Below are positions 1,919 through 53,653 of a DNA stretch of 53,703 nt, piece by piece. The stretch is taken from UHGV virus genome UHGV-0137934; one strand, written 5' to 3'. The position numbers and the translations under genes were made by a program. Position 1 is the first letter of the stretch. Every line of letters starts with the position of its first letter. Below the pieces are notes generated by a model. It was not told where the DNA came from. It worked only from the letters and a program-made list of their open reading frames with translations, and made no database searches. Source of the DNA: a virus.

Positions 1919-1919
1919 C

Positions 1920-2339: not shown

Positions 2340-2359
2340 GATAGACTCGCTCACATAAA

Positions 2360-5426: not shown

Positions 5427-5428
5427 TC

Positions 5429-26438: not shown

Positions 26439-26780
26439 TCATCTGAACCAGTGAGAATTTGGATCAAGCGGAATACCATTTTCATCGCAGCCGATAACGG
26501 TGCCGCGCTTCTCCATTCGCTGTTTCGTTGAGTCATGGTGCTGCTTACACAGCGCTTGCCAGTTCTTCCGGCTCCAGAAAAGCTTTTGCGCCTTCGCTAT
26601 TGCCTGGCTGTCACCAGAGCGTAGAGCCTCTTTCAGTTTGTGAGGGGTGATGTGGTCAACCACCGTTGCAGCTGTCACCCTGCCTTGCTCCTGGCACATG
26701 ACGCACAAGGGGTGCGCACGAAGGAAGATAAGACGCTCACGGTCCCATTTGCTGCCATAGATGCGGGGCTCTTTGTTCAT
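26439..26780 (-). CDS. HNH endonuclease (terminase-associated)
   Basis: 113 aa; Cys-rich HNH motifs (CVMCQ ... HHD); directly upstream of terminase genes. Confidence 0.8.
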   Translation of the reverse strand: MNKEPRIYGSKWDRERLIFLRAHPLCVMCQEQGRVTAATVVDHITPHKLKEALRSGDSQAIAKAQKLFWSRKNWQALCKQHHDSTKQRMEKRGTVIGCDENGIPLDPNSHWFR

Positions 26781-29762: not shown

Positions 29763-30060
29763 CCACTTACCAGAAATAGAAAGATGTTAGACACATCTTC
29801 TGACCAATAAAATTATAAACCTAAGGGATTTCGACCAAATCATTTTCATAACTTCGCGTTAGCTAACAATTTCTTTGTCTGAACACGCTGCAAATTAAAA
29901 GGCTTAACTAGTTTGCATAGGCTGGAGTGTCGCGATTATTTACAGTGCTTTAGTAAATCGCTATGATTTACGGACTGGGGAGGCCTGAGACTCACCCCAG
30001 TGCCCTTAAAATCTGATTGATGCTTTTGAGGTCCGCTTCCCGAAGTGGACCTTTTTTTGC

Positions 30061-30088
30061 CCAAAGAAAAGGCCCGCCGAAGCGAGCC
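30061..30088 (-). terminator. intrinsic terminator (minus strand)
   Basis: Minus-strand hairpin GGCTCGC-TTCG-GCGGGCC followed by TTTTCTTT. Confidence 0.5.
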
Positions 30089-30119
30089 TGCCACTGCTGT
30101 TTCTTTGTTTGTATTGGTT

Positions 30120-30253
30120 GTGGTGCCGGGTGCCTCCCGGTGAGCTTTTGGGTGACCGACCATAGCTCGCGTTCATTAGCTTCTAACTCTGCTGACGTTA
30201 CCGTGCCACATTGTCTGGTCAGTTCCGCCCCGCCGCACAGGGGGATTCACCAC
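30120..30253. repeat. structured element A (134 nt) with conserved termini GTGGTGCCGGGTGCCTCCCGGTGAGC ... GGGGGATTCACCAC
   Basis: Paralogue of 31142-31253; termini can pair (GTGGTG/CACCAC); internal CCGGG...CCCGG hairpin; ERIC-like end motif. Confidence 0.35.
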
Positions 30254-30324
30254 GCACTTTAATTAACCAACCATTTAGACTCATGTCAATTATTTGTGTT
30301 CTATGCATCAACGTAGATAATCCG

Positions 30325-30971: not shown

Positions 30972-31141
30972 GAAAAAGTTGGCTTTCGAGGAGTAACGAT
31001 AAAGAAAGGTTCCTGATAGTCCGAGCTACCGATTTACCAGAAAAGCATTCCCTTTAATGTCGTTACTGTAATTAACCATAGTCTGCCAAAGAGGATGAGT
31101 AAACCTAACAGGATGTTCAGTTTACTTACTTGCGATTAGAT

Positions 31142-31253
31142 GTGGTGCCGGGTGCCTCCCGGTGAGCATGCCCCAACAGACATCACTCGCGTGGTATTCA
31201 CAGGGCTTTCGCTCTATTAGTTGGACGCCCCTCCGCATAGGGGGATTCACCAC
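31142..31253. repeat. structured element B (112 nt), paralogue of element A
   Basis: Identical 26-nt 5' end and near-identical 3' end to element A; variable middle. Confidence 0.35.
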
Positions 31254-31508
31254 AACAATAGATTAGCCATGCAGCATTCACATAGTCAATACCCTGTAGT
31301 TATAGGGTATATACGCATGCCGACAACTCTTAAATAAGTCAGAACACGATTAATTAATGCATATGAAATCATTACGGTATTAATGATAAAAACTCATACA
31401 AAACAATAAATTTAAAAGGAATTATCCGTTAGGATTTTTCCTACGCCAATCGCAAACTACGTTTTATAAAAACAAGAATGTCCATACTCTTTCCAGAGGT
31501 TAACTCAC

Positions 31509-31809: not shown

Positions 31810-32655
31810 TTATTTGCCGTTAGTGCCGAGTACACGGCTCAGGTTTTTCAGCAGGACAGTCGATGCCGTTTCCAGCATATCATCACCGGCATCGGTATTT
31901 GCGACCACCAGCGTTTTAGTGCAAGGAACCTTCACCTTTGAATCGCTCAGCCAGCCGGACTCGGTCACCGCCTTTTTCAGCTCGTACACCGGTTTCCCGT
32001 TTGGCAGTTTATCGTCGACGTGCCAGCCGTTCATGTCGATCATCGTCAGGCCGCTGCCTTCCTGATTAACCGCCTCCAGAAACTTATTCGACCGGTCCGG
32101 TGCTGATACCCAGAGGAAGGCGTCATACTCGCCAGTGGTGACTTTCGCCAGAGAGCGCACACCGCCTTTGGCATAGGTCTCGACTTTGGCGTAATCCTTT
32201 TCCAGCCCCTGAAGATATTGCCAGGATGCATACGATCCGCTGGTTGGATCTCCGACTGCGATTTTCACACCAGCCTTTAAATCTCCTTCATCGCTGACCT
32301 TGCCCCCCTTCTTCACTGCAACAAAAACGCATTCATCTGCCAGTTCGCCGATTATGTCCACCTTCTGCGCTTCGTTGCTATGCCGACTGCGCCAGAACTG
32401 GAAAGCATCAGCCTGGGTGAAACCGATCTGGGCAGTACCGCTGGCAACCTTGTCGAGATTGTCCAGAGAGCCTTTACTGGGGATCACCATCGAGCTATAG
32501 CCATACTCACTTAGTGCGCTGGCGAGATTAACGCCATACACCGCGTTATAAGTCAGGCCCTGCTGGCCAGTAGTGATGACGACATCCGCAGCTGCCGCAA
32601 CATTACTCAGGCACAGCGAAGCGACCGCGATGGCGGCCATGATTAACTTTTTCAT
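31810..32655 (-). CDS. secreted periplasmic solute-binding-protein-like protein (TAXI/PhnD-like superfamily)
   Basis: 281 aa from ATG at 32655 with AAGGAAAG RBS; signal peptide MKKLIMAAIAVASLCLSNVAAA; ORF track N-terminal extension is unlikely. Confidence 0.5.
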   Translation of the reverse strand: MKKLIMAAIAVASLCLSNVAAAADVVITTGQQGLTYNAVYGVNLASALSEYGYSSMVIPSKGSLDNLDKVASGTAQIGFTQADAFQFWRSRHSNEAQKVDIIGELADECVFVAVKKGGKVSDEGDLKAGVKIAVGDPTSGSYASWQYLQGLEKDYAKVETYAKGGVRSLAKVTTGEYDAFLWVSAPDRSNKFLEAVNQEGSGLTMIDMNGWHVDDKLPNGKPVYELKKAVTESGWLSDSKVKVPCTKTLVVANTDAGDDMLETASTVLLKNLSRVLGTNGK

Positions 32656-32890
32656 GTGACTTTCCTTTACAGGGGTGAGCCAGTGCCCAGAGGTGATCGC
32701 CCTCAGAGAAGTCACGCGACCATTCTGTGGCTCACCCCTGTTAAGGCTCTGAGGATGATATGCACCGGCACCGGTGCAGAAATGAAAAAGCGCGCGTATG
32801 CGAGCCTTTAATTGTTGCCGCCACGTGGCGACTTTTTCACCAGTCTGATATCGTTGATTTGCCAATAACCATACAGACAAGGGGATTAAT

Positions 32891-33349
32891 GTGTCTGACT
32901 ACCACAACCTGTTACATGTGATTAAATCGCGCGTGTGTGAAAACAGGAGCATGTCGCACTCCGCTTATTATCCGGGCAGCATGCAGGACAATCAGATCAG
33001 AAACAGAACGGCGCTGATTTATGTCCTCGAAATGCTTCTCCATCTGCACAGACTAAAGTATGCCACTATTTTCAATCCGCTTGAGGGGAAAGCTGCGCTG
33101 CACCATCTCATCTTTATGAAAACAAATTGGCGGCCGTCAGTAATCAGAGATCTGAAATTGGAAGATGCTCTTTTTGTTATCCAGGATGAACTGAGGATAG
33201 AGAACATAAGCGACGAAGCTCAGGAGGCTTTAAGCTCATTCAACCTCCCTTCAGTTGCTTTCCTGTTTGAGGATTTTCCAGAAGAGGACTGGAACTATAG
33301 GGAAAACTCAACGTTCCTTCGAAACCTGATGATGAAAGCAACTCAATAG
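32891..33349 (+). CDS. hypothetical protein
   Basis: 152 aa; GTG start with AAGGGGA RBS; 3' end overlaps convergent ORF. Confidence 0.35.
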   Translation: MSDYHNLLHVIKSRVCENRSMSHSAYYPGSMQDNQIRNRTALIYVLEMLLHLHRLKYATIFNPLEGKAALHHLIFMKTNWRPSVIRDLKLEDALFVIQDELRIENISDEAQEALSSFNLPSVAFLFEDFPEEDWNYRENSTFLRNLMMKATQ

Positions 33350-33791: not shown

Positions 33792-34841
33792 CTAACTCAG
33801 CAAACTGCGCATTTCACTGACCGTCTGTTCAAACCGCTCGGTTTCCAGTTCAACGCCGATTCCACTCCGCCCAAGCAGAGCCGCTTGCTTTAGTGTGGAA
33901 CCCGAACCAGCAAAGAAATCAGCTACGACATCCCCTGGCCGACTGCTTGCAGTAATGATCTGCTGGAGCATATCGGCAGGTTTTTCGCATGGGTGCTTAC
34001 CTGGATAAAACTGAACCGGCTTATGTGTCCAGACGTCGGTATATGGCACCGTGACCGACACGCTAAATGGGCGCCGTAACCGGTAAAGCTCCTGCTGAAG
34101 TTCAGAATACTTCCGGTTAAGTGATTGCCAGGTAGCGACAAGCTGGTGGTGAGGTTTTCCCAGTTCGTTGCGTGAGTGCTTATCCATGGCGATTTTTTGA
34201 AACAGAGCCTGCAACTTCAAATAATCGGCTTCATTCGGCAGTTGCCACTGGCTAAGGCCAAACCAGTGGGAAACCATATTTTTTTTACCCGTGGCTTCTG
34301 CAATCTGGGCCGACGTCACGCCAAGAGATTCCCGGGCATCCCGGAAGTAAGAAATTAAAGGCGTCATGATGTGTTGCTTTAACTCATTACACTTTGCGGC
34401 ATATCCATCGTCTTTGGGCCTGTATGGCCCCTGATAATGGTCGGCAAAAATGATACGCTCAGTGGCCGGGAAATAAGCGCGTAAGCTCTCCTTATTGCAG
34501 CCGTTCCATCGCCCTGATGGCTTAGCCCAGATGATATGGTTGAGCAGGTTAAACCGCTCTCTCACCAACAGCTCAATATCCGCTGCCAGGCGGTGCCCAC
34601 AGAACAGATACATGCTGCCGGCAGGTTTTAACACTCGCCAGAACTGTGCCAGACAGCTATCCAGCCAACGTAAATAGTCCTCGTCCCCCTGCCATTGGTT
34701 ATCCCAGCCGTTTGGCTTCACCTTAAAATAAGGCGGATCGGTAACAATAAGATCAATGGAGTTATCGGGTAGTGATGGGAGGTATTGCAGGCAATCAGCA
34801 TTGATTAATTCAACACTGGATATTTTTACAGTATTTTTCAT
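33792..34841 (-). CDS. DNA methyltransferase, N6-adenine/N4-cytosine type (DPPY motif)
   Basis: 349 aa; IVTDPPYF motif; C-terminal SAM-binding FFAGSGST. Confidence 0.8.
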   Translation of the reverse strand: MKNTVKISSVELINADCLQYLPSLPDNSIDLIVTDPPYFKVKPNGWDNQWQGDEDYLRWLDSCLAQFWRVLKPAGSMYLFCGHRLAADIELLVRERFNLLNHIIWAKPSGRWNGCNKESLRAYFPATERIIFADHYQGPYRPKDDGYAAKCNELKQHIMTPLISYFRDARESLGVTSAQIAEATGKKNMVSHWFGLSQWQLPNEADYLKLQALFQKIAMDKHSRNELGKPHHQLVATWQSLNRKYSELQQELYRLRRPFSVSVTVPYTDVWTHKPVQFYPGKHPCEKPADMLQQIITASSRPGDVVADFFAGSGSTLKQAALLGRSGIGVELETERFEQTVSEMRSLLS

Positions 34842-34990
34842 AGATCAGTAAGCGTAACTCTGATAGGCTCACTTTGCTTTTGCGCTAAAGCAGTGGGCCG
34901 TGGTTAGCTTGTGACCTGAAAGCATGAGCTGATGGCTGGTCGGGTGCTACAACACCCACCAGCCGCCCATTTTCACAGCAAAAGCCCCCA

Positions 34991-35182
34991 TTACTGGAGG
35001 CGCTTATAACATCCGAACTGATAATCAGATAACCCCGCCATTACCAGCTGCGTAAGTATGAGCTGGCAGCGTTCGCGGCTCAGGTGAGTATTCTGAGCAA
35101 TCTCCCCAGCCGTAGCCGGTTTGTCACTTAATTCATCAAAAACAGCCTTGGCTGTTTCCGTTATATCTTGCTGATTTAGCAT
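34991..35182 (-). CDS. small winged-helix-like protein, first ORF after candidate late terminator
   Basis: 63 aa from ATG at 35182 with GAGGT RBS. Confidence 0.4.
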   Translation of the reverse strand: MLNQQDITETAKAVFDELSDKPATAGEIAQNTHLSRERCQLILTQLVMAGLSDYQFGCYKRLQ

Positions 35183-35283
35183 GTCTTTTACCTCAAATAA
35201 GTGGTGTGACATACAGATAACTCTGGTGACGGTATCCAGCAAGAACTAATTGAAAGAGAAGAAGATTTTATCGATTTTAGCCC

Positions 35284-35308
35284 ATAAAAAAACCCGCTCG
35301 CTGGCGGG
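35284..35308 (-). terminator. candidate tR'-type intrinsic terminator downstream of Q-like gene
   Basis: Minus-strand hairpin CCCGCC-AGCGA-GCGGG followed by U7. Confidence 0.5.
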
Positions 35309-35348
35309 TTAATCAACGTTGAACATACAAAGCCCATCGTTATAGATA

Positions 35349-35376
35349 AAATTACACAAAAGCGGCAACTTTGCAA
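35349..35376 (-). promoter_or_regulatory. candidate late promoter (P_R'-like): TTGCAA-N16-TAATTT
   Basis: Sigma70-like hexamers on minus strand between Q-like stop and terminator. Confidence 0.3.
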
Positions 35377-35392
35377 GTAACGTGTCGCTAAA

Positions 35393-36223
35393 TTATGCGA
35401 TATTTATGAAATCAGACACCTTTGTCACACGTTTAAGTTGTGAGTCGGTATAACTCTCTTCCTCAAAGCATTTTGTAACCAGACTTTCATAGAAAGGTTT
35501 CCAGCTGTATCGCCAGGTACGTTCTGGCAGACCAGGCAGCTCAGAGAGTATACCTCTGTAAGCATTTGAAGACTTAGGACGACTATAACCGCGACCTTCA
35601 CAACGTTTACATACTTTGTAGACAGGCACTCCCTGCAGCTCTGACTCTTTACGGTCCAGGGTTTTTCCCGTACCGCCACACTGGCATCGCTTGCTGATTT
35701 TCCCGGTGCCGCCGCATTTAAAGCAGAGAACATGGTCAATCTCTTCCACCTGACGTTTTACTTCAAAATCCGAAGGTGACTGCCCGAGGTCTTTTGCCCA
35801 TTGCGGTAATCTCATTTTGTAGTGGCTTTTTTCCACCATTGAGGTTTTTTTTATGAAGCCTGAACCAGAACACTTCCTGCAATCTACGCTGTCAGCTGCA
35901 GACGAGGCATAGTCGTTATAAGCGAACCGAGCTATTATCAGCATACACAGCGGGAACTTCTTCCCTGCTGCTTTTCTTATCGATCGAGGCGCTTTTGATT
36001 TTGCATATTCAGCCAACCAACTGACGGATGCCTTTCTGTCGTGTTCGCTGATTCCAGCTTTACCCAAAAACATTGACAGGCCTATTCCCGCCTCTGCCTG
36101 TGTCATCCCCAGTGCGGCCATTACATCTGTCACAGTGAGTTGCTCGCTGGCGGTTGCACGACCGCTATCGGAAATATGCATTCCTTTGGGCGCGAAAAAT
36201 TTGGGAATTGATTCAATATTCAT
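35393..36223 (-). CDS. Q-like late antiterminator (zinc-finger type)
   Basis: About 276 aa; CxxC...CxxC motifs; position upstream of late promoter/terminator. Confidence 0.5.
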   Translation of the reverse strand: MNIESIPKFFAPKGMHISDSGRATASEQLTVTDVMAALGMTQAEAGIGLSMFLGKAGISEHDRKASVSWLAEYAKSKAPRSIRKAAGKKFPLCMLIIARFAYNDYASSAADSVDCRKCSGSGFIKKTSMVEKSHYKMRLPQWAKDLGQSPSDFEVKRQVEEIDHVLCFKCGGTGKISKRCQCGGTGKTLDRKESELQGVPVYKVCKRCEGRGYSRPKSSNAYRGILSELPGLPERTWRYSWKPFYESLVTKCFEEESYTDSQLKRVTKVSDFINIA

Positions 36224-36241
36224 GCTCAGTACTCCATACAC

Positions 36242-37297
36242 TCAAGCTTTTACAATGACGCCGATACCCATTACCCGATCCAGAAAACGAGCCCACAGCT
36301 CTAACTGAGTGCCATATTTCTTTTCGAACTCTGATGTATTGGCGTGTAATTCATCGTGATGCACTCTGCACAGTGGTATCACGAAGAGATCATGGGCCTT
36401 GGTGCCAGTTCCCCCCAGACCATTCCCTATTATATGGTGTGGATCGTCTGATGGTTGCCTGCAGCATTCACATGGCTGAGTTTTAACCCAACGTGTGTAA
36501 ACTTCGCAGGTCCAGCGCCGGCGCTTTGGGCGGCGCATAAATGATTCGGGGCTGTTCGGATCGACACTAAGCCTCAGAGTGGGTTTACTTTCAATCTGAG
36601 GTTGCTCAATGAGTACGCTGGCGTCCGCCAGGTCTATGCCCTCAACAAGATCCTGAAGGATTTCACCTGCAGCAAATGACGGGACAATATCGCTATCCTT
36701 ATAAACGGACAGGAAAGGTTCCTCAGGCAGTCTTAAGGCCTGTTGCGCCATCGTCTCGGTTATTGCGTCAGCAATGCCGGATTTCACAGCCCACCAGCAG
36801 AGCTCCGCCATCGATAATTCGCGCTCCTTATTGTATCCAAGGCTGATCAGCACCCTTTCAATCACCCACTGAACCAGATTCTGATAAGCCAGCTCTGACA
36901 ACATTTCGGTGGTCTGCTCACGTAATTCATTATCACAATGCCAGCAGACAACCATGGCGCCAGGCGGATGCCGCATAGTCACTAATTCATGGTGGTGATA
37001 GTGGGAATGCGGGTACTGGCACTCTCTGACATTTCGTAGAAGCCAGGCCTCAAGAGCGTTAATTCCACCAGCTGCGTTAATAACCCTCTCATCCCTCATG
37101 AAAAAACGCAGAATGTCCATTTCGGCAAGCGGCTGACGTGCATCGGCGATCCGCCCAGTGGGCAGTGTTTTCATCTTCTCTGGCTGACGCTCTATCAGGA
37201 CACGGCCGCCGGTAAAGAGAGGCATCAATTCACGACCGGGTTTGAAAAGAACAACACCGAGACGAGACACGACTTCAGGGGTCAGTAATGCTCTCAC
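36242..37297 (-). CDS. DUF968-type phage protein with HNH-like C-terminal motif
   Basis: 351 aa; C-terminal PCECC ... HHIIGNG ... CRVHHDELH. Confidence 0.5.
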   Translation of the reverse strand: MRALLTPEVVSRLGVVLFKPGRELMPLFTGGRVLIERQPEKMKTLPTGRIADARQPLAEMDILRFFMRDERVINAAGGINALEAWLLRNVRECQYPHSHYHHHELVTMRHPPGAMVVCWHCDNELREQTTEMLSELAYQNLVQWVIERVLISLGYNKERELSMAELCWWAVKSGIADAITETMAQQALRLPEEPFLSVYKDSDIVPSFAAGEILQDLVEGIDLADASVLIEQPQIESKPTLRLSVDPNSPESFMRRPKRRRWTCEVYTRWVKTQPCECCRQPSDDPHHIIGNGLGGTGTKAHDLFVIPLCRVHHDELHANTSEFEKKYGTQLELWARFLDRVMGIGVIVKA

Positions 37298-38148
37298 TGA
37301 ATGCCCCCAGAAAGCTCTTTATCGTGGGTATATTCCCCATTCCAGGATTGCTTCATAGGCAGTTGTCCCTTCAGATACTTGCGATAAAGCCAAACAGCCC
37401 CATCGCGTAGGAGGACGGGCTGGTATGTTGTGAAACTGGCGGCGGCGCTCGGTGAAACTTTTGTGCTCTTCTCGGTGAGATACTTATCCCTGACCTGAGA
37501 TCTGACACGCCATTGAGCGTGATTGCCGTTAGGATTGTCATCGTAAAGCCAGTTAGCGCTCTGTAGGAAGGCGCTGACTTTACTGACGTTGACTCCATTC
37601 AGACGTTTGCAGAACTGCACTGGGGATAAGCCGTCGGTAAACAGGTTTTCAAGATGATCGATATATTGAGCCAGCCGGTGACTTAAAGCCTCAATCCTCT
37701 GCCTGGCTTCATACTCATCAGCCCACGCCCTGGCAGCTAGCGCCGGGTTGGAAAATTCAGGATGCGTATGGCTTATCGCTGATTTTGCCTGCTGCTCGCA
37801 ACTAATGAAATAACGCCTTACCTGACGACCTTTTTCATTGCGCTCTACCATCGCTAACTCTTTACCCATATCGATGGTGACCATGTAATCCACTGCCGGG
37901 CGCCCGCCGAGTGGGTTTTCGCCAGAACTGGCGATAACTGTATAATCGATGTTTTCAGCAAAACCGTACTGGCTAATACGAGACTTTATCCAGTTGCTGA
38001 AGTCACGACCGACCCCAAGAAAATTATGCAGTCGCCTGGCGCTTACCAACGAAGCTCTCTGATCGCCGATTGTGCCCTGCATTACCGGAATTACCTGATG
38101 CAATTGATTATCGACAGGCGTAGCTACGCCCATAACATGGTTAGCCAT
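37294..38148 (-). CDS. antirepressor (AntA/KilAC-type)
   Basis: About 284 aa from ATG 38148 with GGAGA RBS; N-terminal Bro/AntA-like region. Confidence 0.6.
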   Translation of the reverse strand: MANHVMGVATPVDNQLHQVIPVMQGTIGDQRASLVSARRLHNFLGVGRDFSNWIKSRISQYGFAENIDYTVIASSGENPLGGRPAVDYMVTIDMGKELAMVERNEKGRQVRRYFISCEQQAKSAISHTHPEFSNPALAARAWADEYEARQRIEALSHRLAQYIDHLENLFTDGLSPVQFCKRLNGVNVSKVSAFLQSANWLYDDNPNGNHAQWRVRSQVRDKYLTEKSTKVSPSAAASFTTYQPVLLRDGAVWLYRKYLKGQLPMKQSWNGEYTHDKELSGGIQ

Positions 38149-38237
38149 ATTTATCTCCATACACTCTGAAGTGACGAAAGGGCCTGCACGCCCGTTTCGT
38201 TTGCACCATTCGACATTACTGCCAACTAGCAAATCTT

Positions 38238-38636
38238 TCAACCCACAGCTGTACATACATCCACCACTTTTTGATAGCAGACTATGGTGATTTCTACCCT
38301 GCCTCCTTTGACGATTTCACCCCATTCAATAGCCATACGCTTAACCTGGTTGTCGTCCTCCCAGATACCGGCATAAGTCAAAGCATCAAGAAGTGCCTTG
38401 TTGTAATTGTCCAGGTCACGCCGGCGATAGTCTGGCGGATAGAGAATAATTTCTACAGCTGCTGGCGCGGTAGATGGTTTTGGTATTGCACGCAGTTGCT
38501 CAATGATCGCTGAACGTACTGCATGTTTGAATTTACGGCCGGCTGCGCTGACAAGGTGTTTACCTTTTGCGGGCCCCTTATTTGGGGACCGCCAGTAGAT
38601 GTTCACGCTGGGTGGGAATGGAAGAATAAATTTCAT
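38238..38636 (-). CDS. rusA: RusA Holliday-junction resolvase
   Basis: 132 aa; LPFPPSVN ... DLDNYNKALLDALT motif. Confidence 0.85.
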   Translation of the reverse strand: MKFILPFPPSVNIYWRSPNKGPAKGKHLVSAAGRKFKHAVRSAIIEQLRAIPKPSTAPAAVEIILYPPDYRRRDLDNYNKALLDALTYAGIWEDDNQVKRMAIEWGEIVKGGRVEITIVCYQKVVDVCTAVG

Positions 38637-39109
38637 TCTGCCTCCAGCACTATCTTCAACTCAAACGGAACATCTCCTCCGCAATAGCAGAGCGGGCCAA
38701 GGTCAGACATAAGGCTCCACAGGGTCATTGACGTATAGCCATTTTCGTCTGTTACCGGGGGCGAAAAGTCCCCGAAGATCCCCGGGTGCTGGATTCGATT
38801 CTGCTCGTGTTGTTTTTCCAAATGTCTGAGGGAGACTTCATTGAGTTTCACTTTTACGATGCTGTTGAGATTGACCGATATTTCTCTGGCCAGCAGCGCA
38901 GGGGTGATACTGATACCGCGAGAAACCCCGCGGCTGATTGTGATAACACCCTTTTTCTCTAACGCCTTGAGGTGCGTTGCTGCTGCATTGGGGGACCGGC
39001 ACCCCAGCATGCCGGTCAGTTCGTAAGTTGTAGGCGGAAAACCATGTTTACGCTGATATTCGATCAGGAGGTCAAGGACCTCCTGCTGCCTTAAGGTCAA
39101 GGAAGTCAT
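38633..39109 (-). CDS. LexA-type winged-HTH DNA-binding domain protein lacking S24 peptidase domain
   Basis: About 158 aa; N-terminus LTLRQQEVLDLL ... GFPPTTYEL ... NAAATHLKALEKKGVI matches LexA DNA-binding domain; C-terminus unrelated to LexA. Confidence 0.6.
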   Translation of the reverse strand: MTSLTLRQQEVLDLLIEYQRKHGFPPTTYELTGMLGCRSPNAAATHLKALEKKGVITISRGVSRGISITPALLAREISVNLNSIVKVKLNEVSLRHLEKQHEQNRIQHPGIFGDFSPPVTDENGYTSMTLWSLMSDLGPLCYCGGDVPFELKIVLEAE

Positions 39110-41193
39110 GCTGCCTGCTCCTCTCTGTTCACGCACATTTCGGGTAAGTTAGCGCGTACCAGCGCTTCGGCGAACGGCGGCGGGACGGCATTGCCACAGC
39201 GCGCGACCTGCTTATCTTTCGCGTATTTCACGCCGCGGTAATCCTGGTCAATGATGTACCACTCGGGGAAGCCCTGCGCCCGGTAAAGTTCGTGTGGCTG
39301 CAGCATGCGCATGCCGATATCAACGATGCGGTAAGTCACTCCGTCGATTTCCACCAGCCCGGTGCATTCCTCTCCGCAGTATTCCTGCAGGAACGACAGT
39401 ACCTGCTGCGCTCGCTCTTCATCATAGTCCTCTGCCGCCAGAGTCGTTTTAACCTCCCCTACGTGCTGGCCACCGGCAGTGATAGTCGGCATCGGCTCGT
39501 CAGTAGGCTGGCCGTCACGGCAAGTACCGCGGAGCTTGACCAGATGAGACGTAACCATTGCGGCATCAGCCTTTGTCGTCATGGTTTGCAGTGGCTCGCT
39601 AACGTCACGTGGCCTGCTCTGCCCAGCGCGACCGCCGACACCAACAACCTGAGCAGTAACCAGCGCATGATGATCGACAGTAGTAACTGAGTGAGTAGGT
39701 TCGTCCAGGTCAATACCGGCGCCCTGGTAGTTCCCTCCGTAGTGTTTTGCCAGAAACGCACCAACTACGGCATGTTTCCCGCCACCAGCCACAACGGTGC
39801 CCAGCGGCTTATCCATACCTGGCACGCGAGGTGCCTGTCCTGGCCGTTCCCCGTATCCCGTTTGAATGAGCGTCGGCACAACCAGCTGCGATTTACCGCC
39901 ACCGCCCGCGGTGATTGTTGCGCTAGGCTCATCCGCACGGTGTCCGATGCTGGCGCCGAACTGCCGGGCGATAACCGGAGCGACGACACAGGCGCGCGAT
40001 TCTTTCAGGATGGTGTGAGCGGGTTTATCGAGCGGGCGTGGTTTAGCCTGGTACTCGCTGCCGCCATTGCCATCCAGGAACGGAGCCAGCTCTGCTTCAA
40101 CAATACCCATAGCGTGACCATTCCCGCCCGGGCGTTTTGCGGTACCGGCCGTCACCGTCGGCAACGGATCGGTGACTTCCTGACCGGTAGCTCCGGTTCG
40201 GAATTTTGTCAGATGAGGTACCGCAATTGCGTAGCCGTGGGTTTTCGTAATCGTCTGTAGCGGATCGTCCAGCGCCTGTCCCCGGAAACAGTCGTATTTA
40301 CCGCGTGTCGTTGTGTGATTGCACTTCACGATGAACGGCGAAGCGCTTTCGATAACAAAGCGCTGAATGCCGCGGGCAATCCGTTTTAGCGTATTCTCTG
40401 CCAGTGACTTTTTGCGACCGAAGATGCTCGGCGCGGGGATTGACCAGTCTATGCATTCCGCTGCTGTACGCCACGGCTCCAGCTGGCCCGCCAGCACGGC
40501 GGCAGACTTCGGATCCCCGTGCGTGGCTTCCGGCCAGACTATCGGTTTCCCGTCCCGGCGCATCACCATGAAGAACCGCTTACGGATGGTCGGCGCACCA
40601 TAATCGCAGGCGCGCAGCTCGCGAAAATCGACGACATAACCCAGCCCGGCAATTAAGCGCTTGGCCTGCTCGCTATCCGGTGAAAACTCCAGAAACTCGC
40701 AACACTCCACCAGTGCAGGATGATCTGCTGGAATACCGGTGGTAAGCATCCCGACAAATGCATTGAAAGTTTCACCGATGCGTGCCGGATCCGGTCGCAT
40801 TTCTGCCGCGAGTAACGGGCCCCACGTTTTAAACTCTTCGACGTTTTCCAGCATCATGACTCGCGGGCCAACATCCAGCGCCCAACGAATGACGATCCAT
40901 GCCAGCCCTCGAATAGTTTTCTCTACTGGTTTAGCACCTTTCGCTTTAGAAAAGTGACGACAGTCAGGCGAGAACCATGCCAGGCCGACAGGCTTGCCAC
41001 TGGTAGCGGCTAATGGGGATACATCAAACACACTTTCGCAATAGTGAAGCGTGTCGGGATGGTTAGTGCGGTGCATAGCAACGGCGTTAACATCGTGGTT
41101 AATCGCGATATCAACGCTACGCCCTATCGCCAGCTCAATACCTGTACTGGCACCACCGCCACCAGCAAAATTATCGACAATAATCTCACGCAT
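39106..41193 (-). CDS. DNA (cytosine-5) methyltransferase, long form with repeated target-recognition-like segments (probably multispecific)
   Basis: 695 aa; motif I FAGGGG, motif IV SPDCRHFSKAKG, motif VI ENV, C-terminal CGNAVPPP; central region with repeated P.xTITAGG-type segments. Confidence 0.8.
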   Translation of the reverse strand: MREIIVDNFAGGGGASTGIELAIGRSVDIAINHDVNAVAMHRTNHPDTLHYCESVFDVSPLAATSGKPVGLAWFSPDCRHFSKAKGAKPVEKTIRGLAWIVIRWALDVGPRVMMLENVEEFKTWGPLLAAEMRPDPARIGETFNAFVGMLTTGIPADHPALVECCEFLEFSPDSEQAKRLIAGLGYVVDFRELRACDYGAPTIRKRFFMVMRRDGKPIVWPEATHGDPKSAAVLAGQLEPWRTAAECIDWSIPAPSIFGRKKSLAENTLKRIARGIQRFVIESASPFIVKCNHTTTRGKYDCFRGQALDDPLQTITKTHGYAIAVPHLTKFRTGATGQEVTDPLPTVTAGTAKRPGGNGHAMGIVEAELAPFLDGNGGSEYQAKPRPLDKPAHTILKESRACVVAPVIARQFGASIGHRADEPSATITAGGGGKSQLVVPTLIQTGYGERPGQAPRVPGMDKPLGTVVAGGGKHAVVGAFLAKHYGGNYQGAGIDLDEPTHSVTTVDHHALVTAQVVGVGGRAGQSRPRDVSEPLQTMTTKADAAMVTSHLVKLRGTCRDGQPTDEPMPTITAGGQHVGEVKTTLAAEDYDEERAQQVLSFLQEYCGEECTGLVEIDGVTYRIVDIGMRMLQPHELYRAQGFPEWYIIDQDYRGVKYAKDKQVARCGNAVPPPFAEALVRANLPEMCVNREEQAA

Positions 41194-42139
41194 GAGCGGT
41201 CCCCCTCATGCTGCCGACCAGCCCACCAGCAACGGTGATGATTTCGCTGGTGGGCACGCGCTCCAGCCACAACTGGTTAATGTGGGCCTTCAGCTTGTTC
41301 TGCTGGGAGAACTCCAGATCCTCTGCGCCTTGTACCTGTCCAAAGACGAGTCCAACTTCCAGTGGCCAGATCCGGGATTCAGGCTCAGCCAATGATGCAA
41401 CAGCATCGGGGATGATCACTTCAGGAGACTGAACTGGCGAAACTGGTGACAGGAATTTTCCTGCAGCAAACTCAGCCAGCGCCATACTTGCGCGCCCTTT
41501 TGCTTCCAGCTCAACGCGATCGATATAGCTAAAATGTTCACCGCGCCAGGTCTTATCAAATACCGCAATGGCCCCGGCAAAGAAGGCGCTGGTGGGCTTC
41601 TGCTTTTCGTCGGCCGGCACAAACCACGTTGGGAGATCGAATCCAATACGACCACGAATAAACATGATGTGATCGGCATATTCCGGCCACCATGTTTCAC
41701 TTGTTGCTGACTTCACGAGGTAAATGTAACGACCACCCTTTTCACGCTGCTCGGCGGTATAGTTCATAATATGAGTCATGCCAGTGATGGCTTGTTTTTC
41801 ATGGTACTGCGAACGGCTGTACGGCGGATTAGCAAAGGCCGCTCCTCCGAGTTCTACCAAACGACCAGACCAGTCCTGCGTCAGCGCATTATCTTCAGCG
41901 GTATACCATGCCGGACATTTTGTATTGCTGTCGTCTGCAAACAGGTCCAGTACCAGCGGGCCAAACATAGCGTTAACGCCCCAGAATAGCAGATCAGGGG
42001 TACGCCATTGATCCCCGACTTCTTTTAAATAATGCGCACTACGCTGGCGCTGTTCCTCAAGTGCCAGGCAATAAGGGCTGACTGTTTTTGTTAAAGTTTG
42101 CTCTTCTGCGGTCATAGCTTCTTGTACTTCCTGACTCAT
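41186..42139 (-). CDS. phage Dam-type N6-adenine DNA methyltransferase with C-terminal extension
   Basis: 317 aa; DLFADDSNTKCPAWYT and FANPPYS motifs. Confidence 0.7.
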   Translation of the reverse strand: MSQEVQEAMTAEEQTLTKTVSPYCLALEEQRQRSAHYLKEVGDQWRTPDLLFWGVNAMFGPLVLDLFADDSNTKCPAWYTAEDNALTQDWSGRLVELGGAAFANPPYSRSQYHEKQAITGMTHIMNYTAEQREKGGRYIYLVKSATSETWWPEYADHIMFIRGRIGFDLPTWFVPADEKQKPTSAFFAGAIAVFDKTWRGEHFSYIDRVELEAKGRASMALAEFAAGKFLSPVSPVQSPEVIIPDAVASLAEPESRIWPLEVGLVFGQVQGAEDLEFSQQNKLKAHINQLWLERVPTSEIITVAGGLVGSMRGTAHA

Positions 42140-44909: not shown

Positions 44910-45584
44910 ATGAAAACAATCCAGGAAATCAGGCGGTTAAACGCCAGAAAATTGCGTGATGGTGTTGGCGGTAATATTTACTTCGCCAATATGATTGATC
45001 GCGAGCCGACTCAAACCAGCCGGTTCATGGGAGATGGCGCCACTAAAAACATCGGCGATGCAATGGCAAGGCACATTGAAAAGTGTTTTGACTTACCTAC
45101 TGGGTGGTTAGATCAGGAACATCAAACCACTAATGTTGCTAAAACTCCCGATGTCTCTGATACAAATAGAAATATCACCATGGTTCCGGTTATATCCTGG
45201 GTACAAGCAGGAGCATGGACCGAAGTTGGCTATGCTGAGGTTGATTTGAATAGCACTGAAAACTATCCATGCCCTGTTCCTTGTGGGCCGATGACTTATA
45301 TTCTTCGTGTTATTGGCGACTCAATGATCGACGAATATAGGCCCGGTGATATGATTTTTGTTGATCCCGAAGTTCCAGCAGTACATGGAGATGATGTGAT
45401 CGCCTTAATGCACGATTCTGGTGAGACTACATTTAAACGGTTGATTGAAGATGCAGGACAACGCTATCTAAAAGCACTTAACTCAAACTGGCCAGAACCT
45501 TACATCAAAATCAATGGTAATTGCTCTATCATTGGTACCATAATTTTTTCCGGTAAACCAAGACGATACCGAACGAAAACATAA
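44910..45584 (+). CDS. CI-type repressor (HTH plus S24 LexA-like peptidase)
   Basis: 224 aa; C-terminal VIGDSM ... ETTFKRL motif of S24 autoproteases. Confidence 0.85.
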   Translation: MKTIQEIRRLNARKLRDGVGGNIYFANMIDREPTQTSRFMGDGATKNIGDAMARHIEKCFDLPTGWLDQEHQTTNVAKTPDVSDTNRNITMVPVISWVQAGAWTEVGYAEVDLNSTENYPCPVPCGPMTYILRVIGDSMIDEYRPGDMIFVDPEVPAVHGDDVIALMHDSGETTFKRLIEDAGQRYLKALNSNWPEPYIKINGNCSIIGTIIFSGKPRRYRTKT

Positions 45585-49022: not shown

Positions 49023-49225
49023 TGGCACACGTGAAAGTGAAAGAATTGGTTGCTGCAGCGTACGCTGCGGCACCTGACCTACCACCAGCAGCAGCAGCCC
49101 AATTAATGCAAGACATAGCGTCAAGGCTGGATGTGACCTTTGTCGCCCTTACAGAGGCAATGGACCAGAACACCGCTATGGCCGCGATGATAGCGAACCT
49201 GAGCGAGGAAAACAGAAATGGCTAA
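49022..49225 (+). CDS. hypothetical small protein
   Basis: 67 aa Ala-rich ORF overlapping neighbours. Confidence 0.35.
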   Translation: MAHVKVKELVAAAYAAAPDLPPAAAAQLMQDIASRLDVTFVALTEAMDQNTAMAAMIANLSEENRNG

Positions 49226-50006
49226 AAACTCGATCGATGCTTATGGCGCCAGCGGCAAGACAAACGTTCTGATGTTCGAGCCGGAAAATCTGCATATTGT
49301 CACTGACAAGGCTCACCCGCTTTACGATGAACGTATTCACTTACCTCTCAGTGAAGCCATGGTGCTGAACATCATAGACCAGGGTGTTCTGGAGCCGATT
49401 ATTGTCTGGAAAGACCCGGAAACTGGGTACTCCTGCGTGGTTGATGGCCGTCAGCGTGTCCGTCATACCCTGGAGGCTAACAGACGCCTGGCCAAAGAGG
49501 GTAAAACTCCGCTACTGGTTCCGGCTGTCACTAAACGCGGTTCTGCTGTTCGCATGGCTCAGGCAATGGTCAGCGCAAACGAAATCCGCCAGGCCGACAC
49601 ACCGCTGGGCAGGGCCAAAAAGATGGCTGATGCGCTGGAGCGCGGGCATGACGAGGAAGACCTAGCGCTGATGTTCGGCGTCAGTGTCCCCACTGTACGC
49701 GCTACGCTATCCCTTCTGGATGCCACTCAGGCAGTCAAAGACGCGGTAGAGTCCGGCGCAGTGACCGTTACCCAGGCACGGCAACTGGCATCACTGAAAC
49801 CCGAAGAACAGCGGGAAAAGGTAGCCGAAATCGAAGCGGCGACCGCTGGCACTACCGGTCATGAAAAAGCGCGTCGTCAGCGCCAGGTCCTCGGCGATAA
49901 GAAACCGCGCCTTAAAACTCGCAAAGAAATCACAAAAGCCCTCGAAGCTGCCAACGGTGAATACGCTGATGCTCTGCGCTGGGTACTTGGGGAGGTAACA
50001 TTATGA
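49218..50006 (+). CDS. ParB/Srx-fold (ParB N-terminal domain-like) protein
   Basis: 262 aa; VLEPIIVWKDPETGYSCVVDGRQRVRH matches ParB-N/sulfiredoxin arginine finger region. Confidence 0.6.
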   Translation: MAKNSIDAYGASGKTNVLMFEPENLHIVTDKAHPLYDERIHLPLSEAMVLNIIDQGVLEPIIVWKDPETGYSCVVDGRQRVRHTLEANRRLAKEGKTPLLVPAVTKRGSAVRMAQAMVSANEIRQADTPLGRAKKMADALERGHDEEDLALMFGVSVPTVRATLSLLDATQAVKDAVESGAVTVTQARQLASLKPEEQREKVAEIEAATAGTTGHEKARRQRQVLGDKKPRLKTRKEITKALEAANGEYADALRWVLGEVTL

Positions 50007-51082
50007 GTAAAGTAGGAGATCATTTCTTTGAGTTTCCTGCATCACGTGGAACTCAGGGCGGTTCAATTGTCCTGATGCTAACTGTTCCTGCACGGACCCT
50101 TACGCGAGTTCTCGCCAGCGATAATTACGGGGACACTCTTGAACGCTCGCAGCGAGAACTGAACCCAGCCAGGGCGAAAAAGTTTTATCAGTATCTTGTT
50201 GAAGCATACGAAAACAAAGAGCCATTTATCATTCCACCGCTGGTAGGTAACTGCGATTCGTATGTTGAATTCGAAGAGTTCGGAAACACTAATGTCGGGG
50301 TGGCCCGATTCCCGATGGACGCAGAGATTAAATTGTTTGATGGTCAGCATCGCGCAGCAGGTATTGCGGAATATTGTCGCACCATTGATGAACCGATCCA
50401 TGTCCCGATGATGCTTACTCTCCAGTTGCCACTGAAGACACGGCAGCAGTTTTTCTCCGACATTAACAACAATGTTTCGAAACCTTCTGCGGCTATCAAT
50501 ATGGCCTATAACGGTCGTGATAAGAACGCGCAGGAGATGGTTAGTTTTATCAGTTCACACAGCGTATTTTCTGAAGTCACCGATTTTGAGCATAACGTCG
50601 TTCCCGCGAAAAGTGATAAGTGGGTGAGCTTCAAAGCCCTTAGTGATGCTACTGCAAAATTTTCCGGTTCATGTTCACAAGATGACCTTGAGGGGTTGTG
50701 GAATGCCTGGCTGATGCTGACTGGTTTAGATGATATTCGCCGAGGTACGAACCAGGTCGAGTACAAACGCGAGTATATCCAGTTCCATGCTGTGATGATT
50801 AACGCCTTTGGCTACGCCGTGCAGAGGTTAAGCGAAGGTCGGGGAGTTCGCGGGGTCACGCTGATGATTGAGGACTTGGTAATGAATACCGGCATTGCCG
50901 AACGTGAAGATTTCTTCCTCCTTTCATCATGGGATGGTATTTGCGCCAGCTGCGAGAAAACAAGGCCAACGGTCATTGCGAATGTCTCATCTCAGAAAGC
51001 TGCAGCATCACGCCTGATGGATGCCATCGCGAATAAAAACTTGTCTGTCAGTAGCGGTAAGGAATCAGCCAATGACCAATAA
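50003..51082 (+). CDS. DGQHR-domain protein (DndB-like)
   Basis: 359 aa; exact DGQHR motif at residues 113-117 (nt 50339-50353); ATGA overlap with upstream ParB-like gene. Confidence 0.65.
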   Translation: MSKVGDHFFEFPASRGTQGGSIVLMLTVPARTLTRVLASDNYGDTLERSQRELNPARAKKFYQYLVEAYENKEPFIIPPLVGNCDSYVEFEEFGNTNVGVARFPMDAEIKLFDGQHRAAGIAEYCRTIDEPIHVPMMLTLQLPLKTRQQFFSDINNNVSKPSAAINMAYNGRDKNAQEMVSFISSHSVFSEVTDFEHNVVPAKSDKWVSFKALSDATAKFSGSCSQDDLEGLWNAWLMLTGLDDIRRGTNQVEYKREYIQFHAVMINAFGYAVQRLSEGRGVRGVTLMIEDLVMNTGIAEREDFFLLSSWDGICASCEKTRPTVIANVSSQKAAASRLMDAIANKNLSVSSGKESANDQ

Positions 51083-51740
51083 CCAGTTAACCAGAGAACG
51101 TCTGGAAAAAATTAAATCATGGCGTGACACCTACGGTGCCGGAAGCAACGTAATGCTGCCAGCTGAAGAGGCTGAGGAGCTGGCTCGCATCGCGCTGGCC
51201 GTAATAGACAGCGAGCCGGTCCGCAACCCTGTGCTGGCGTATGCCGACAGTTATCGTGATATGGCGAAACAAGGCGTCAAGTCAGTCCCAATATGGAGCG
51301 TCATTACCGACCTAGAGCGAAACATAGCGCCGCTCTATATCCACGCGCAGCAGCCGGTAGTGCCGGAGGAAAAGCCAATGCCTAATCCGCTGAGCATGTA
51401 CGCCGTTGATGCTGTAGCGGCTATAGCAGAGGTGAAAGGCTGGAACGCCTGCCGCGCCGCCATGCTCCAGGCTGGCAACTCTCCGGTAATTCCGGATGGT
51501 TACATGATGGTGCCGATGAGGCTAACCGCTGAGAACGGTGCAAAAGCAGCGCTTCTCGGGGAATTCAATCTTGAATATACGCTGACATGCCATGAGTGTT
51601 TTGGTGAAGGGTGCGACGACTGCTGCGGCGAGGGAACCTGGACGAGCACCATGCCGATTGACTGGACTACCATCAAAGAAATCTGGGATAAGGCCATTAA
51701 TCACTTCGCAGCCGCCCAGCGGGAGGTGAAAAGTGAGTAA
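51072..51740 (+). CDS. hypothetical protein with C-terminal Cys cluster (CHECFGEGCDDCCGEG)
   Basis: About 222 aa from ATG 51072 with AAGGA RBS. Confidence 0.45.
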   Translation: MTNNQLTRERLEKIKSWRDTYGAGSNVMLPAEEAEELARIALAVIDSEPVRNPVLAYADSYRDMAKQGVKSVPIWSVITDLERNIAPLYIHAQQPVVPEEKPMPNPLSMYAVDAVAAIAEVKGWNACRAAMLQAGNSPVIPDGYMMVPMRLTAENGAKAALLGEFNLEYTLTCHECFGEGCDDCCGEGTWTSTMPIDWTTIKEIWDKAINHFAAAQREVKSE

Positions 51741-52278: not shown

Positions 52279-52515
52279 ATGTCACGTATGGTCTCTTTAC
52301 TCGAATGGGCGAAAGATGAATTCGGTAGTGAAGCCCCTAGCGAGCGTGTATTAAAAAAATACGCTAAAGGTCAAATGATAGCGCCGCCACCGATGCGAGT
52401 TGGACGGCGCTGGATGGTTGACAGAGAAGCTCGTTTTATAGGTGTCGTTGCTGAACCTCAACTTCCAATAAATGTAAACCCAAAATTGAGACGGATAATT
52501 AACGATGGCAGCTAG
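52279..52515 (+). CDS. xis: excisionase (Xis-like)
   Basis: 78 aa from ATG 52279 (GGAGA RBS); overlaps int start; lambda Xis-like pattern. Confidence 0.65.
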   Translation: MSRMVSLLEWAKDEFGSEAPSERVLKKYAKGQMIAPPPMRVGRRWMVDREARFIGVVAEPQLPINVNPKLRRIINDGS

Positions 52516-53653
52516 ACCGCGCACTCATAAAATCTCTATCCCAAACCTGTATTGCAAGCTTGATAAACGCACCGGTAAGGTTTACTGGCAATACAAACAC
52601 CCTATTTCTGGGCGTTTTCATAGCCTCGGCACAGATGAAGCTGAGGCAAAGCAGGTGGCAAGTGAAGCAAACACGATCATTGCAGAGCAGCGAACCAGGC
52701 AGATCCTTAGTATTAACGAGCGTCTGTCGCGTATGAAAGGAAACCGCGCGGACATTACAGTGACAGCATGGCTTGATAAATATGAATCCGTGCAGGAGGA
52801 AAGGTTGAAACACAACGAACTTCGACCAAATTCTTTTAGGCAAAAAGCTAAACCTATCCGGCTTTTTCGTGAGCATTGCGGCATGCAATATCTGAAAGAC
52901 ATTTCAGCACTAGATATTTCTGAAATAACAGATGCGGTTAAGGCTGAGGGTCATAATAGAATGGCTCAAATTGTTCGCATGGTATTAATTGATGTATTTA
53001 AAGAGGCACAGCATGCTGGACATGTTCCGCCAGGTTATAACCCTGCCCAGGCTACTAAGCAACCTCGAAACAAAATTACTAGACAACGTTTATCACTGGA
53101 GGAATGGAAGACTATTTATGAATGCGCTGAGCATCAACAGCCATATTTGCAGTGCGGAATGCTACTCGCAATAGTAACCGGCCAGCGCATAGGTGATATT
53201 TGTAATATGAAATTCACAGATATTTGGGATGATATGTTACATATTGTGCAGGAAAAAACAGGTTCTCGCCTTGCCATTCCGCTCTCACTAAGAAATGAAG
53301 TACTAGATATTTCGCTACGAGATGTTGTTTCAAAATGTAGAGATGCGGTGGTTAGTAAATATCTGGTCCACTTCAGACATACCACCTCTCAGGCTAACCG
53401 TGGTGATCAAGTATCCACGAAAACTCTGACTTCTACATTTAAAAAAGCTCGGGACAAAAGTTGTCTTGCATGGGATGAAGGAAGCGCCCCAACCTTCCAC
53501 GAACAGAGATCTCTTTCAGAACGGTTATACCGCGAGCAGGGCCTAGATACTCAGAAGTTACTGGGCCACAAATCGAAAAAAATGACGGATAAATACAACG
53601 ATGACCGGGGTAAAGACTGGCTCGTTGTAGGTCAGAAAGCAATACGATTTTAA
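52505..53653 (+). CDS. int: tyrosine integrase, lambda Int family
   Basis: 382 aa; closely resembles remembered lambda Int (LAIVTGQRIGD, PTFHE.RSLS.RLY, LLGHKS..M...Y). Confidence 0.9.
   Translation: MAARPRTHKISIPNLYCKLDKRTGKVYWQYKHPISGRFHSLGTDEAEAKQVASEANTIIAEQRTRQILSINERLSRMKGNRADITVTAWLDKYESVQEERLKHNELRPNSFRQKAKPIRLFREHCGMQYLKDISALDISEITDAVKAEGHNRMAQIVRMVLIDVFKEAQHAGHVPPGYNPAQATKQPRNKITRQRLSLEEWKTIYECAEHQQPYLQCGMLLAIVTGQRIGDICNMKFTDIWDDMLHIVQEKTGSRLAIPLSLRNEVLDISLRDVVSKCRDAVVSKYLVHFRHTTSQANRGDQVSTKTLTSTFKKARDKSCLAWDEGSAPTFHEQRSLSERLYREQGLDTQKLLGHKSKKMTDKYNDDRGKDWLVVGQKAIRF

Follow-up and report, generated by a model that had tools for sequence, protein, structure and literature searches.

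Three Orphan Methyltransferases in a Lambdoid Prophage

The UHGV virus genome UHGV-0137934 (53,703 nucleotides, analysed as a whole and called the window here) is a Klebsiella-type lambdoid prophage with three DNA methyltransferases. These are an orthologue of the adenine enzyme M.EcoGII, a Dam-type adenine enzyme, and a 695-amino-acid (aa) cytosine-C5 (C5) enzyme, in which one catalytic core is interrupted by eight short repeated units resembling target-recognition domains (TRDs). It is likely that the three enzymes form a general anti-restriction stack. The best explanation overall, which we hold with somewhat more belief than doubt, is that these restriction-less methyltransferases are made in lytic growth and would protect progeny DNA. 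True multispecificity of the C5 enzyme, with each unit acting as a specificity cassette as in Bacillus phage enzymes, may also apply, and here doubt slightly prevails. The three genes are intact and lie on the minus strand, exactly where a reading made from the sequence alone, without database searches (the sequence-only reading), had placed them, and each product matched a methyltransferase domain in Pfam:

33792..34841, minus strand: beta-class N6-adenine methyltransferase, M.EcoGII orthologue, 349 aa (PF01555 N6_N4_Mtase, E = 1.3e-40)
39106..41193, minus strand: C5-cytosine DNA methyltransferase, 695 aa, one core interrupted by an eight-unit array (PF00145, E = 2.8e-19)
41186..42139, minus strand: phage Dam-family N6-adenine methyltransferase, 317 aa (PF05869, TIGR01712)

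The open reading frames (ORFs) of the window were scanned with Pfam and PADLOC, and no restriction-type nuclease was found among them, in agreement with the sequence-only reading, which had seen no cognate endonuclease. The only nuclease-type matches were a packaging-associated HNH protein at 26439..26780 and the DUF968 protein with an HNH domain. The methyltransferase genes have replication, RusA, AntA, DUF968, Q and lysis genes as neighbours, and no cognate endonuclease adjoins them. All three methyltransferases are orphans. A restriction-modification system, with its nuclease elsewhere in the prophage or the host or too divergent to be recognised, was considered on account of several small ORFs without assigned function and of the HNH-containing DUF968 protein at 36242..37297. 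DUF968 belongs, however, to the standard gene set of the lambdoid nin region, these methyltransferases are also orphans in Citrobacter phage phiNP and in distant prophages, and non-specific methylation of the M.EcoGII type cannot be paired with a sequence-specific nuclease. Since neither Pfam nor PADLOC found a restriction nuclease, this reading was rejected as very improbable.

Catalytic Core of the C5 Enzyme

The C5 enzyme contains the motifs of its class in canonical order, namely I (FAGGGG), IV (SPDC), VI (ENV), VIII (RKR, residues 204-206), IX (residues 629-643) and X (GNAV). Its catalytic core is divided into two parts, both modelled with high values of pLDDT (the predicted local distance difference test):

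40504..41193, minus strand: N-terminal catalytic part, residues 1-230, motifs I-VIII, pLDDT mostly >85
39106..39357, minus strand: C-terminal catalytic part, residues 613-695, motif IX RMLQPHELYRAQGFP and motif X GNAVPPP, pLDDT 85-94

The C-terminal part was aligned with the PDB sequences of 3g7u and DNMT1, and the modelled core was matched by Foldseek to DNMT1, MET1, 3g7u, M.HaeIII and M.HhaI. The profile of the C5 family aligned with M.HhaI in hhalign over the catalytic domain (E = 3.6e-9). Motif IV reads S-P-D-C-x-H-F-S, as opposed to the usual P-C-Q-x-F-S, and the columns S75, P76, D77, C78 and H80 are invariant across the family. Sequence and model together indicate that the window protein is a genuine C5 methyltransferase. 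The best protein match (99%) comes from Klebsiella michiganensis, and Klebsiella and Raoultella genomes contain many copies that are 89-99% identical.

The gene that follows, at 38633..39136 on the minus strand, codes for a protein with a LexA DNA-binding domain (LexA-DBD) and without the S24 peptidase domain. Its probable true start is the ATG at 39109, which overlaps the stop codon of the C5 gene in an ATGA sequence. One protein family, phrog_29443 (273 aa), has matches both to the first 155 aa of the C5 enzyme and to the C-terminal part of the LexA-DBD protein, which indicates that deletion derivatives fusing the two genes exist in other phages.

An Array of Eight Units between Motifs VIII and IX

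The region between motif VIII and motif IX is occupied by contiguous, diverged units of 30-48 aa, about 35 aa each. Matches of a hidden Markov model (HMM) of the unit delimited the array as follows:

39427..40278, minus strand: array of eight TRD-like units, residues 306-589
40189..40278, minus strand: unit 1, residues 306-335
40066..40182, minus strand: unit 2, residues 338-376
39949..40038, minus strand: unit 3, residues 386-415
39847..39942, minus strand: unit 4, residues 418-449
39730..39819, minus strand: unit 5, residues 459-488
39625..39711, minus strand: unit 6, residues 495-523
39520..39609, minus strand: unit 7, residues 529-558
39427..39510, minus strand: unit 8, residues 562-589

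The pairwise local alignment score of the units had a mean of 30.3; when the residues of this region were shuffled, it was 18.4 +/- 0.7 (z = 16.7). The repeated segments that had been described from the sequence as 'P.xTITAGG-like' are real, and there are eight of them. The consensus of the units is EPLPTVTAGG..ALV..FL.KYYG, and that of the family-refined profile is QPVDEPLPTVTAGGHHALVAAFLVKYYGTS. When the units were assigned to the types found in the whole family (see the next section), the window enzyme gave the string G-N-(unclassified)-C-C-E-D-A. The terminal B unit that is usual in the family is missing here, and a helix at residues 592-606 stands in its place.

In 119 orthologues that are 89-99% identical, units 1, 3, 4, 5 and 7 differ at 4-6% of positions, whereas the catalytic N-domain differs at 9.5%. 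This points to strong purifying selection on the array, which is conserved like the catalytic core, and its reading as a degenerate or disordered linker was rejected on this ground. No swapped units were found among these close orthologues, and the differences were evenly spread. In phage matches that fall into two pieces, about 6% of the C5 gene remained unaligned; a cassette swap was considered as the cause of this gap and was rejected, as the units are well conserved.

The C5 Family and the Gain and Loss of Units

An exhaustive search of representatives, clustered at 50% identity, gave 8,250 clusters of the C5 family with a cut-off of E <= 0.001 and 2,555 with one of E <= 1e-30; the proteins are about 470 to more than 1,100 aa long. 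The members come from Proteobacteria, Firmicutes (Paenibacillus), Planctomycetes (Gemmata), Terrimicrobium and others, and the family is present in phages of Ralstonia, Vibrio, Aeromonas, Pseudomonas, Rhizobium and Agrobacterium. Three distant members, from Achromobacter, Paenibacillus and Gemmata, were inspected; each is located in an early region of prophage-like character where no nuclease could be recognised. The unit HMM counted 2-12 units per protein (mode 8) in 151 representatives, and this number correlated with protein length (r = 0.61).

Clustering of 2,061 units from 270 proteins resulted in about 20 recurrent types. All units share a P..T.T...hydrophobic scaffold, in which P6 and T9 are invariant and positions 19 and 23 are hydrophobic. 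The loop after T-x-T (positions 13-17) and positions 8, 20-22 and 26 are specific to the type and conserved within it. At position 15, for example, the entropy falls from 2.75 bits over all units to 0.95 bits within a type.

We then compared 96 pairs of enzymes with N-terminal regions at least 90% identical. The number of units differed in 54% of the pairs, and only 18% shared the same type string. Such a case is provided by the strings GFCDAB, GFCEDAB and GHRFCEDAB, all from intact ORFs with 96-97% identity. Because unit number differs between enzymes with near-identical catalytic domains, the units appear to behave as separable modules that are gained and lost.

In a prophage-like region of Gemmata sp. 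G18 (contig positions 6001..9428), a six-unit C5 member lies 1.2 kb upstream of a PF05869 Dam gene. Since both genes are found at this locus, the pairing of C5 and Dam-type enzymes recurs far outside Enterobacterales.

Comparison of the Units with Known Target-Recognition Domains

The multispecific C5 enzymes of Bacillus phages (M.SPRI, M.Phi3TI, M.SPbetaI, also named MtbP, M.Rho11sI and M.H2I) resemble the window enzyme in being phage-borne orphans with one core and an enlarged variable region of contiguous short segments between motifs VIII and IX. They carry 2-5 TRDs. The window enzyme, in contrast, has 8 units (2-12 in its family), and these are shorter (30-48 aa) and built on a clear common scaffold. 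Its family also differs in having SPDC as motif IV and in spanning Proteobacteria, Firmicutes, Planctomycetes and others. The sequence similarity of the Bacillus TRDs to the units is marginal. MtbP of phage SPbeta (443 aa), which has two specificities, contains two P-x-x-T-[LV]-x-T cores, SPTLTTMGGGHRE and EPAFTVNTIDRHG, so that each of its TRD cores has an element like the core of our units. The type-specific HMMs matched MtbP solely at these two cores. None of 200 shuffles reached the score in the case of types B, E, F, I and K. The monospecific enzymes of solved structure, M.HhaI, M.HaeIII and 3g7u of prophage CP-933R, share the catalytic fold and the motifs, but their TRD is single and about 80-100 aa long, where the window enzyme has an array of about 285 aa. 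The recognition loop of M.HhaI, 'ITLSAYGGG', resembles the unit core 'PTVTAGG' by eye, and statistics give no support to this likeness. The enzymes of Bacillus are believed to shield phage DNA from many restriction systems (PMC12707154, PMC8936443), and a 2025 review credits multi-TRD arrays to Bacillus temperate phages only (PMC12707154).

A number of results weigh against the reading of the units as separate specificity cassettes. The matches of the type-specific HMMs to the MtbP cores are weak (1-5 bits) and those to M.HhaI (a comparison sequence identical to PDB 10mh_A) are not significant, while the generic unit HMM is not significant on either MtbP (-1.0 bits) or M.HhaI (-4.9 bits). A 32-position unit profile run against all PDB sequences gave only a chance match, to a polysaccharide monooxygenase, and hhalign of the family profile with MtbP and with M.HhaI aligned the catalytic domain only. 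In AlphaFold2 models of the 695-aa protein (diverse alignment of 88 sequences), the core was confident and the pLDDT of the array was <50; it was likewise <50 for the array of a natural homologue with six units, P0344, modelled with an in-register alignment of 54 sequences. The C-terminal order C-E-D-A-B is conserved across phyla, from Paenibacillus to Gemmata, and variation is concentrated in the N-terminal units. Such an order is more in keeping with a structural scaffold than with specificity cassettes that could be left out at will. The SPDC form of motif IV means that the catalysis of the C5 enzyme may differ from that of textbook enzymes. Literature searches aimed at multispecific or phage C5 enzymes turned up no member of the C5 family with a measured specificity. 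Only two 5-methylcytosine motifs were seen when 14 K. pneumoniae strains, which may or may not carry the C5 gene, were analysed by bisulfite methylomes (PMC9684165); silence in lysogens would be expected anyway. The sequence-only reading had assigned the C5 enzyme the architecture of multispecific phage methyltransferases. The single core, the enlarged region of tandem units and its modularity bear this out; the identity of the units as TRDs was not borne out by the profile, hhalign and AlphaFold2 results.

The M.EcoGII-Like Adenine Enzyme

In the 349-aa enzyme, DPPY (residue 35) comes before FAGSG (residue 310), the motif order of the beta class, and the earlier description of it as a DPPY-type N6/N4 methyltransferase holds. 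It can be placed more exactly. When aligned with M.EcoGII (the sequence in Supplementary Table S1 of PMC11551740), it showed 76% identity and 87% similarity over 349/349 residues with 2 gaps. The continuous alignment includes the segment modelled in M.EcoGII as a helix-turn-helix TRD (residues 160-237; PMC11551740):

34131..34364, minus strand: segment aligning with the helix-turn-helix TRD of M.EcoGII, residues 160-237 (limits from PMC11551740)

This degree of similarity indicates that the enzyme is an M.EcoGII orthologue, which corrects its annotation. It is 77-83% identical to the 'DNA methylase' of SfV, phiP27, cdtI, mEp460, Stx2 phages and phiNP, and the M.EcoGII gene family was found in 2,749 of 5,426 complete E. 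coli genomes.

M.EcoGII is a 349-aa beta-class enzyme of an E. coli O104:H4 prophage that methylates adenine in any context (Murray et al., PMC5778455). Its methylation blocks many restriction enzymes in vitro (PMC5778455); the gene is unexpressed in the lysogen, and the enzyme harms cells if it is expressed (PMC5778455, PMC12707154). The window enzyme shares with it the length of 349 aa, the order DPPY ... TRD ... FxGxG and a prophage origin. It differs in being an orthologue of the Klebsiella lineage in which 24% of the residues are changed. With 76% identity, it is probably also non-specific for the context of adenine. The gene lies downstream of Q and of two terminator-like hairpins, a position that it also has in phiNP and in other lambdoid and Stx phages. 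As this layout is that of PR'-tR' in lambda, the gene is probably expressed late and in a Q-dependent manner. From its orthology and its place behind Q and the hairpins, it is expected to be silent in the lysogen.

The Dam-Type Adenine Enzyme

The 317-aa enzyme was identified as a member of the phage Dam family by PF05869 (E = 1.1e-42, 146 bits at a cut-off of 28.1) and by the NCBIfam equivalog TIGR01712, 'phage N-6-adenine-methyltransferase' (187 bits at a cut-off of 97). It contains NPPY at residue 104 and, as had been read from the sequence, an extension, which measures about 100 aa beyond residue 216:

41492..42034, minus strand: Dam domain, residues 36-216
41186..41491, minus strand: C-terminal extension of about 100 aa, residues about 217-317

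The scores above the curated cut-offs, the NPPY motif and the location in the nin/replication region of a lambdoid phage are typical of this family. The extension is what sets the window enzyme apart, as it is present in a minority of phage homologues: it is conserved in Sb44 of ST64B, in the phiNP methyltransferase and in a few others, whereas most homologues end after the Dam domain. Only 12 of 467 records of phage homologues covered at least 80% of the enzyme. The extension had no Pfam match and was matched along its full length by phrog_111; no solved structure was similar in sequence to the enzyme. Characterised phage members of the family, among them T1 Dam, HP1 Dam and VT2 Dam, are specific for GATC, and by analogy with them we assume the same specificity for the window enzyme.

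In the records of Flotzy, Eeyore and ST64B, the Dam domain is annotated with, or adjoins, a PAPS-reductase-like protein, and phrog_33262 links the two.

Location of the Methyltransferase Genes in the Prophage

The Pfam and PADLOC scans detected the integrase, cI/cro/cII, Q, lysis and terminase genes of a lambdoid prophage. Features of the prophage around the methyltransferase genes are as follows:

52505..53653: integrase
44910..45584: S24 repressor
42.7-44.6 kb: cII-like and replication genes
36242..37297: DUF968 protein with HNH (Pfam)
35393..36241, minus strand: Q-type antiterminator at the boundary of the early and late operons (PF03589 Antiterm, E = 7.9e-46)
34984..35310, minus strand: interval between Q and the M.EcoGII-like gene, with two terminator-like hairpins and a small ORF
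35310..35291 and 35001..34984, minus strand: terminator-like hairpins (consensus terminator scan)
34991..35242, minus strand: small ORF (PHROG match, phrog_331)

A run of overlapping junctions joins a small ORF, the Dam-type gene, the C5 gene, the LexA-DBD gene, RusA and AntA. The overlap is an ATGA sequence between the small ORF and Dam, between C5 and LexA-DBD, and between LexA-DBD and RusA; it amounts to 8 nucleotides between Dam and C5, and RusA and AntA overlap as well. Because of these junctions, we conclude that the Dam-type and C5 genes belong to a single, densely packed early-right transcription unit, which lies just downstream of the replication gene. The order of this operon continues as RusA, AntA, DUF968 and Q, after which come the holin, endolysin, small and large terminase, head and tail genes.

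The closest sequenced phage is Klebsiella phage Kp4866-6, with 95% nucleotide identity across the C5 gene. In Citrobacter phage phiNP, the replication gene O is followed by a Dam-type gene, a long 'putative methylase', further genes, Q, a beta-class 'dam' and the holin gene. As phiNP has all three methyltransferase genes in the same order as the window, the triad recurs as a module among enterobacterial lambdoid phages and is not peculiar to this prophage. The GC content of the 39-41 kb interval, which spans the C5 gene, is 58%, compared with about 50% in the neighbouring intervals.

Proposed Function and Alternative Explanations

If the enzymes serve anti-restriction, the three methyltransferases would be made only in lytic growth and would mark the DNA of progeny phage so that it survives restriction in the next host. 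The Dam-type and C5 enzymes are probably produced together, since their start and stop codons overlap, and they would act early, on DNA during replication. The M.EcoGII orthologue would follow late and methylate adenines globally, in nearly any context. For the C5 enzyme, we favour the mechanism of the multispecific Bacillus phage enzymes, in which each cassette or small group of cassettes might dock in turn beside the catalytic domain and offer a different recognition loop to the major groove, so that a single enzyme would methylate several different cytosine motifs. The timing of expression given here is probable. A comparison of the methylomes of a lysogen and a cured strain, which had been put forward as a check, would be a weak test of the stack, because the genes lie in CI-repressed early and Q-dependent late operons and both operons are expected to be silent in the lysogen, as is documented for M.EcoGII. 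The stacked anti-restriction that the sequence-only reading proposed is strengthened by the orphan triad, its recurrence in phiNP and the M.EcoGII orthology, and taken as a whole that interpretation has gained partial support.

The strongest competitor, unlikely as we judge it, concerns the array. The units could be structural repeats of one extended, solenoid-like DNA-binding domain with a single or a relaxed, nearly context-free specificity; in the relaxed version, the enzyme would be a cytosine counterpart of M.EcoGII, and the units would be elements of grip or processivity and not independent TRDs. The order C-E-D-A-B and the position-specific tails conserved across phyla speak for such a composite domain, as do the lack of a significant profile match of the units to known TRDs, the failure of AlphaFold to find an autonomous domain per unit, and the presence of a non-specific adenine enzyme in the same phage. 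However, whole units are gained and lost between catalytic domains 96-97% identical, a kind of change to which a single co-folded domain would be ill suited. Each type of unit has a strongly distinctive loop that is conserved among the units of that type, and non-specific binding needs no such loops. In addition, the type profiles pick out only the two TRD cores in the multispecific MtbP.

We regard it as improbable that the methyltransferases serve mainly phage physiology, that is, replication, packaging, control of gene expression or epigenetic effects on the host. Phage P1, in which Dmt/Dam methylation is needed at pac sites, gives an example of such a role. Here, the Dam-type and C5 genes are embedded in, and translationally coupled to, replication and recombination genes, and a LexA-DBD gene overlaps the end of the C5 gene. 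According to reviews, many orphan methyltransferases of phages may regulate the viral cycle (PMC12707154). Against this, no regulatory logic is obvious in methylation of the M.EcoGII type, which in vitro blocks many restriction enzymes (PMC5778455), and three enzymes covering both A and C, with rapid turnover of cassettes, look like a trait of an arms race. The GATC sequence is neither depleted nor enriched in the prophage (178 observed vs 185 expected).

Returning to specificity by cassettes, a wider form of it can be put forward, with more reserve than for the window enzyme itself. The 695-aa enzyme would then belong to a very large, pan-bacterial and phage-borne family, in which each of the 2-12 cassettes, of at least 20 types, could recognise a separate cytosine target and be quickly added, lost or swapped. 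If so, the family would be a natural combinatorial anti-restriction device with a number of methylated motifs that scales with the number of units, and multispecific enzymes of the Bacillus phage type would extend far beyond that genus.

The M.EcoGII orthologue and the Dam-type enzyme are of known kinds. The C5 family is apparently uncharacterised in the literature; it is modular and extends a known concept. The orthology with M.EcoGII would explain how such prophages can escape most adenine-sensitive restriction. We know of no structure that settles how one catalytic domain uses several TRDs, a question that goes back to the Bacillus phage work of the 1990s. The C5 family offers natural variants by the thousand, with near-identical cores and differences of single cassettes, and it is thus well suited to the mapping of cassettes to motifs. 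If the cassettes are true specificity modules, they would provide a parts list for the engineering of cytosine methyltransferases, and they could help in predicting, for temperate phages of Klebsiella, the host range and the evasion of restriction.

Other Features of the Prophage

Two matches to the Rfam small RNA family STnc100 were found on the minus strand, at 30059..30282 (97 bits) and 31099..31282 (70 bits), both above the gathering score of 47. They fall in a 2.6-kb stretch, poor in ORFs and low in GC, that has the holin gene on one side and a cargo gene on the other. The gene at 31810..32880 on the minus strand codes for a protein whose N-terminus resembles a signal peptide (MKKLIMAAIAVASLCLS...) and which has a periplasmic solute-binding domain of the NMT1_3/TAXI-like kind. 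This gene lies downstream of Q and of the M.EcoGII-like gene, in the 'moron' slot, and it is adjoined by a divergent 152-aa ORF on the plus strand (32891..33349, phrog_5286).

The early-left operon on the plus strand codes for a ParB-helix-turn-helix protein (49218..50006), a DndB-like protein (50003..51082; PF14072 1.7e-43, PADLOC DndB 1.9e-35) and a phrog_60 protein (51021..51740). No DndACDE genes accompany the DndB-like gene in this operon. This may be a pair that senses DNA modification or acts in counter-defence.

To the left of the tail genes, at 653..2354 (minus strand), 2828..3379 (minus strand) and 3471..6196 (plus strand), there are a pair of genes for a UmuD-like S24 peptidase and UmuC (IMS family), a gene for a Hin-type serine invertase, and two plus-strand ORFs, which had no Pfam matches. 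The plus-strand ORFs face a 1,220-aa minus-strand ORF at 6320..9982, and their position beside the Hin-type invertase suggests that this neighbourhood is an invertible tail-fibre region.

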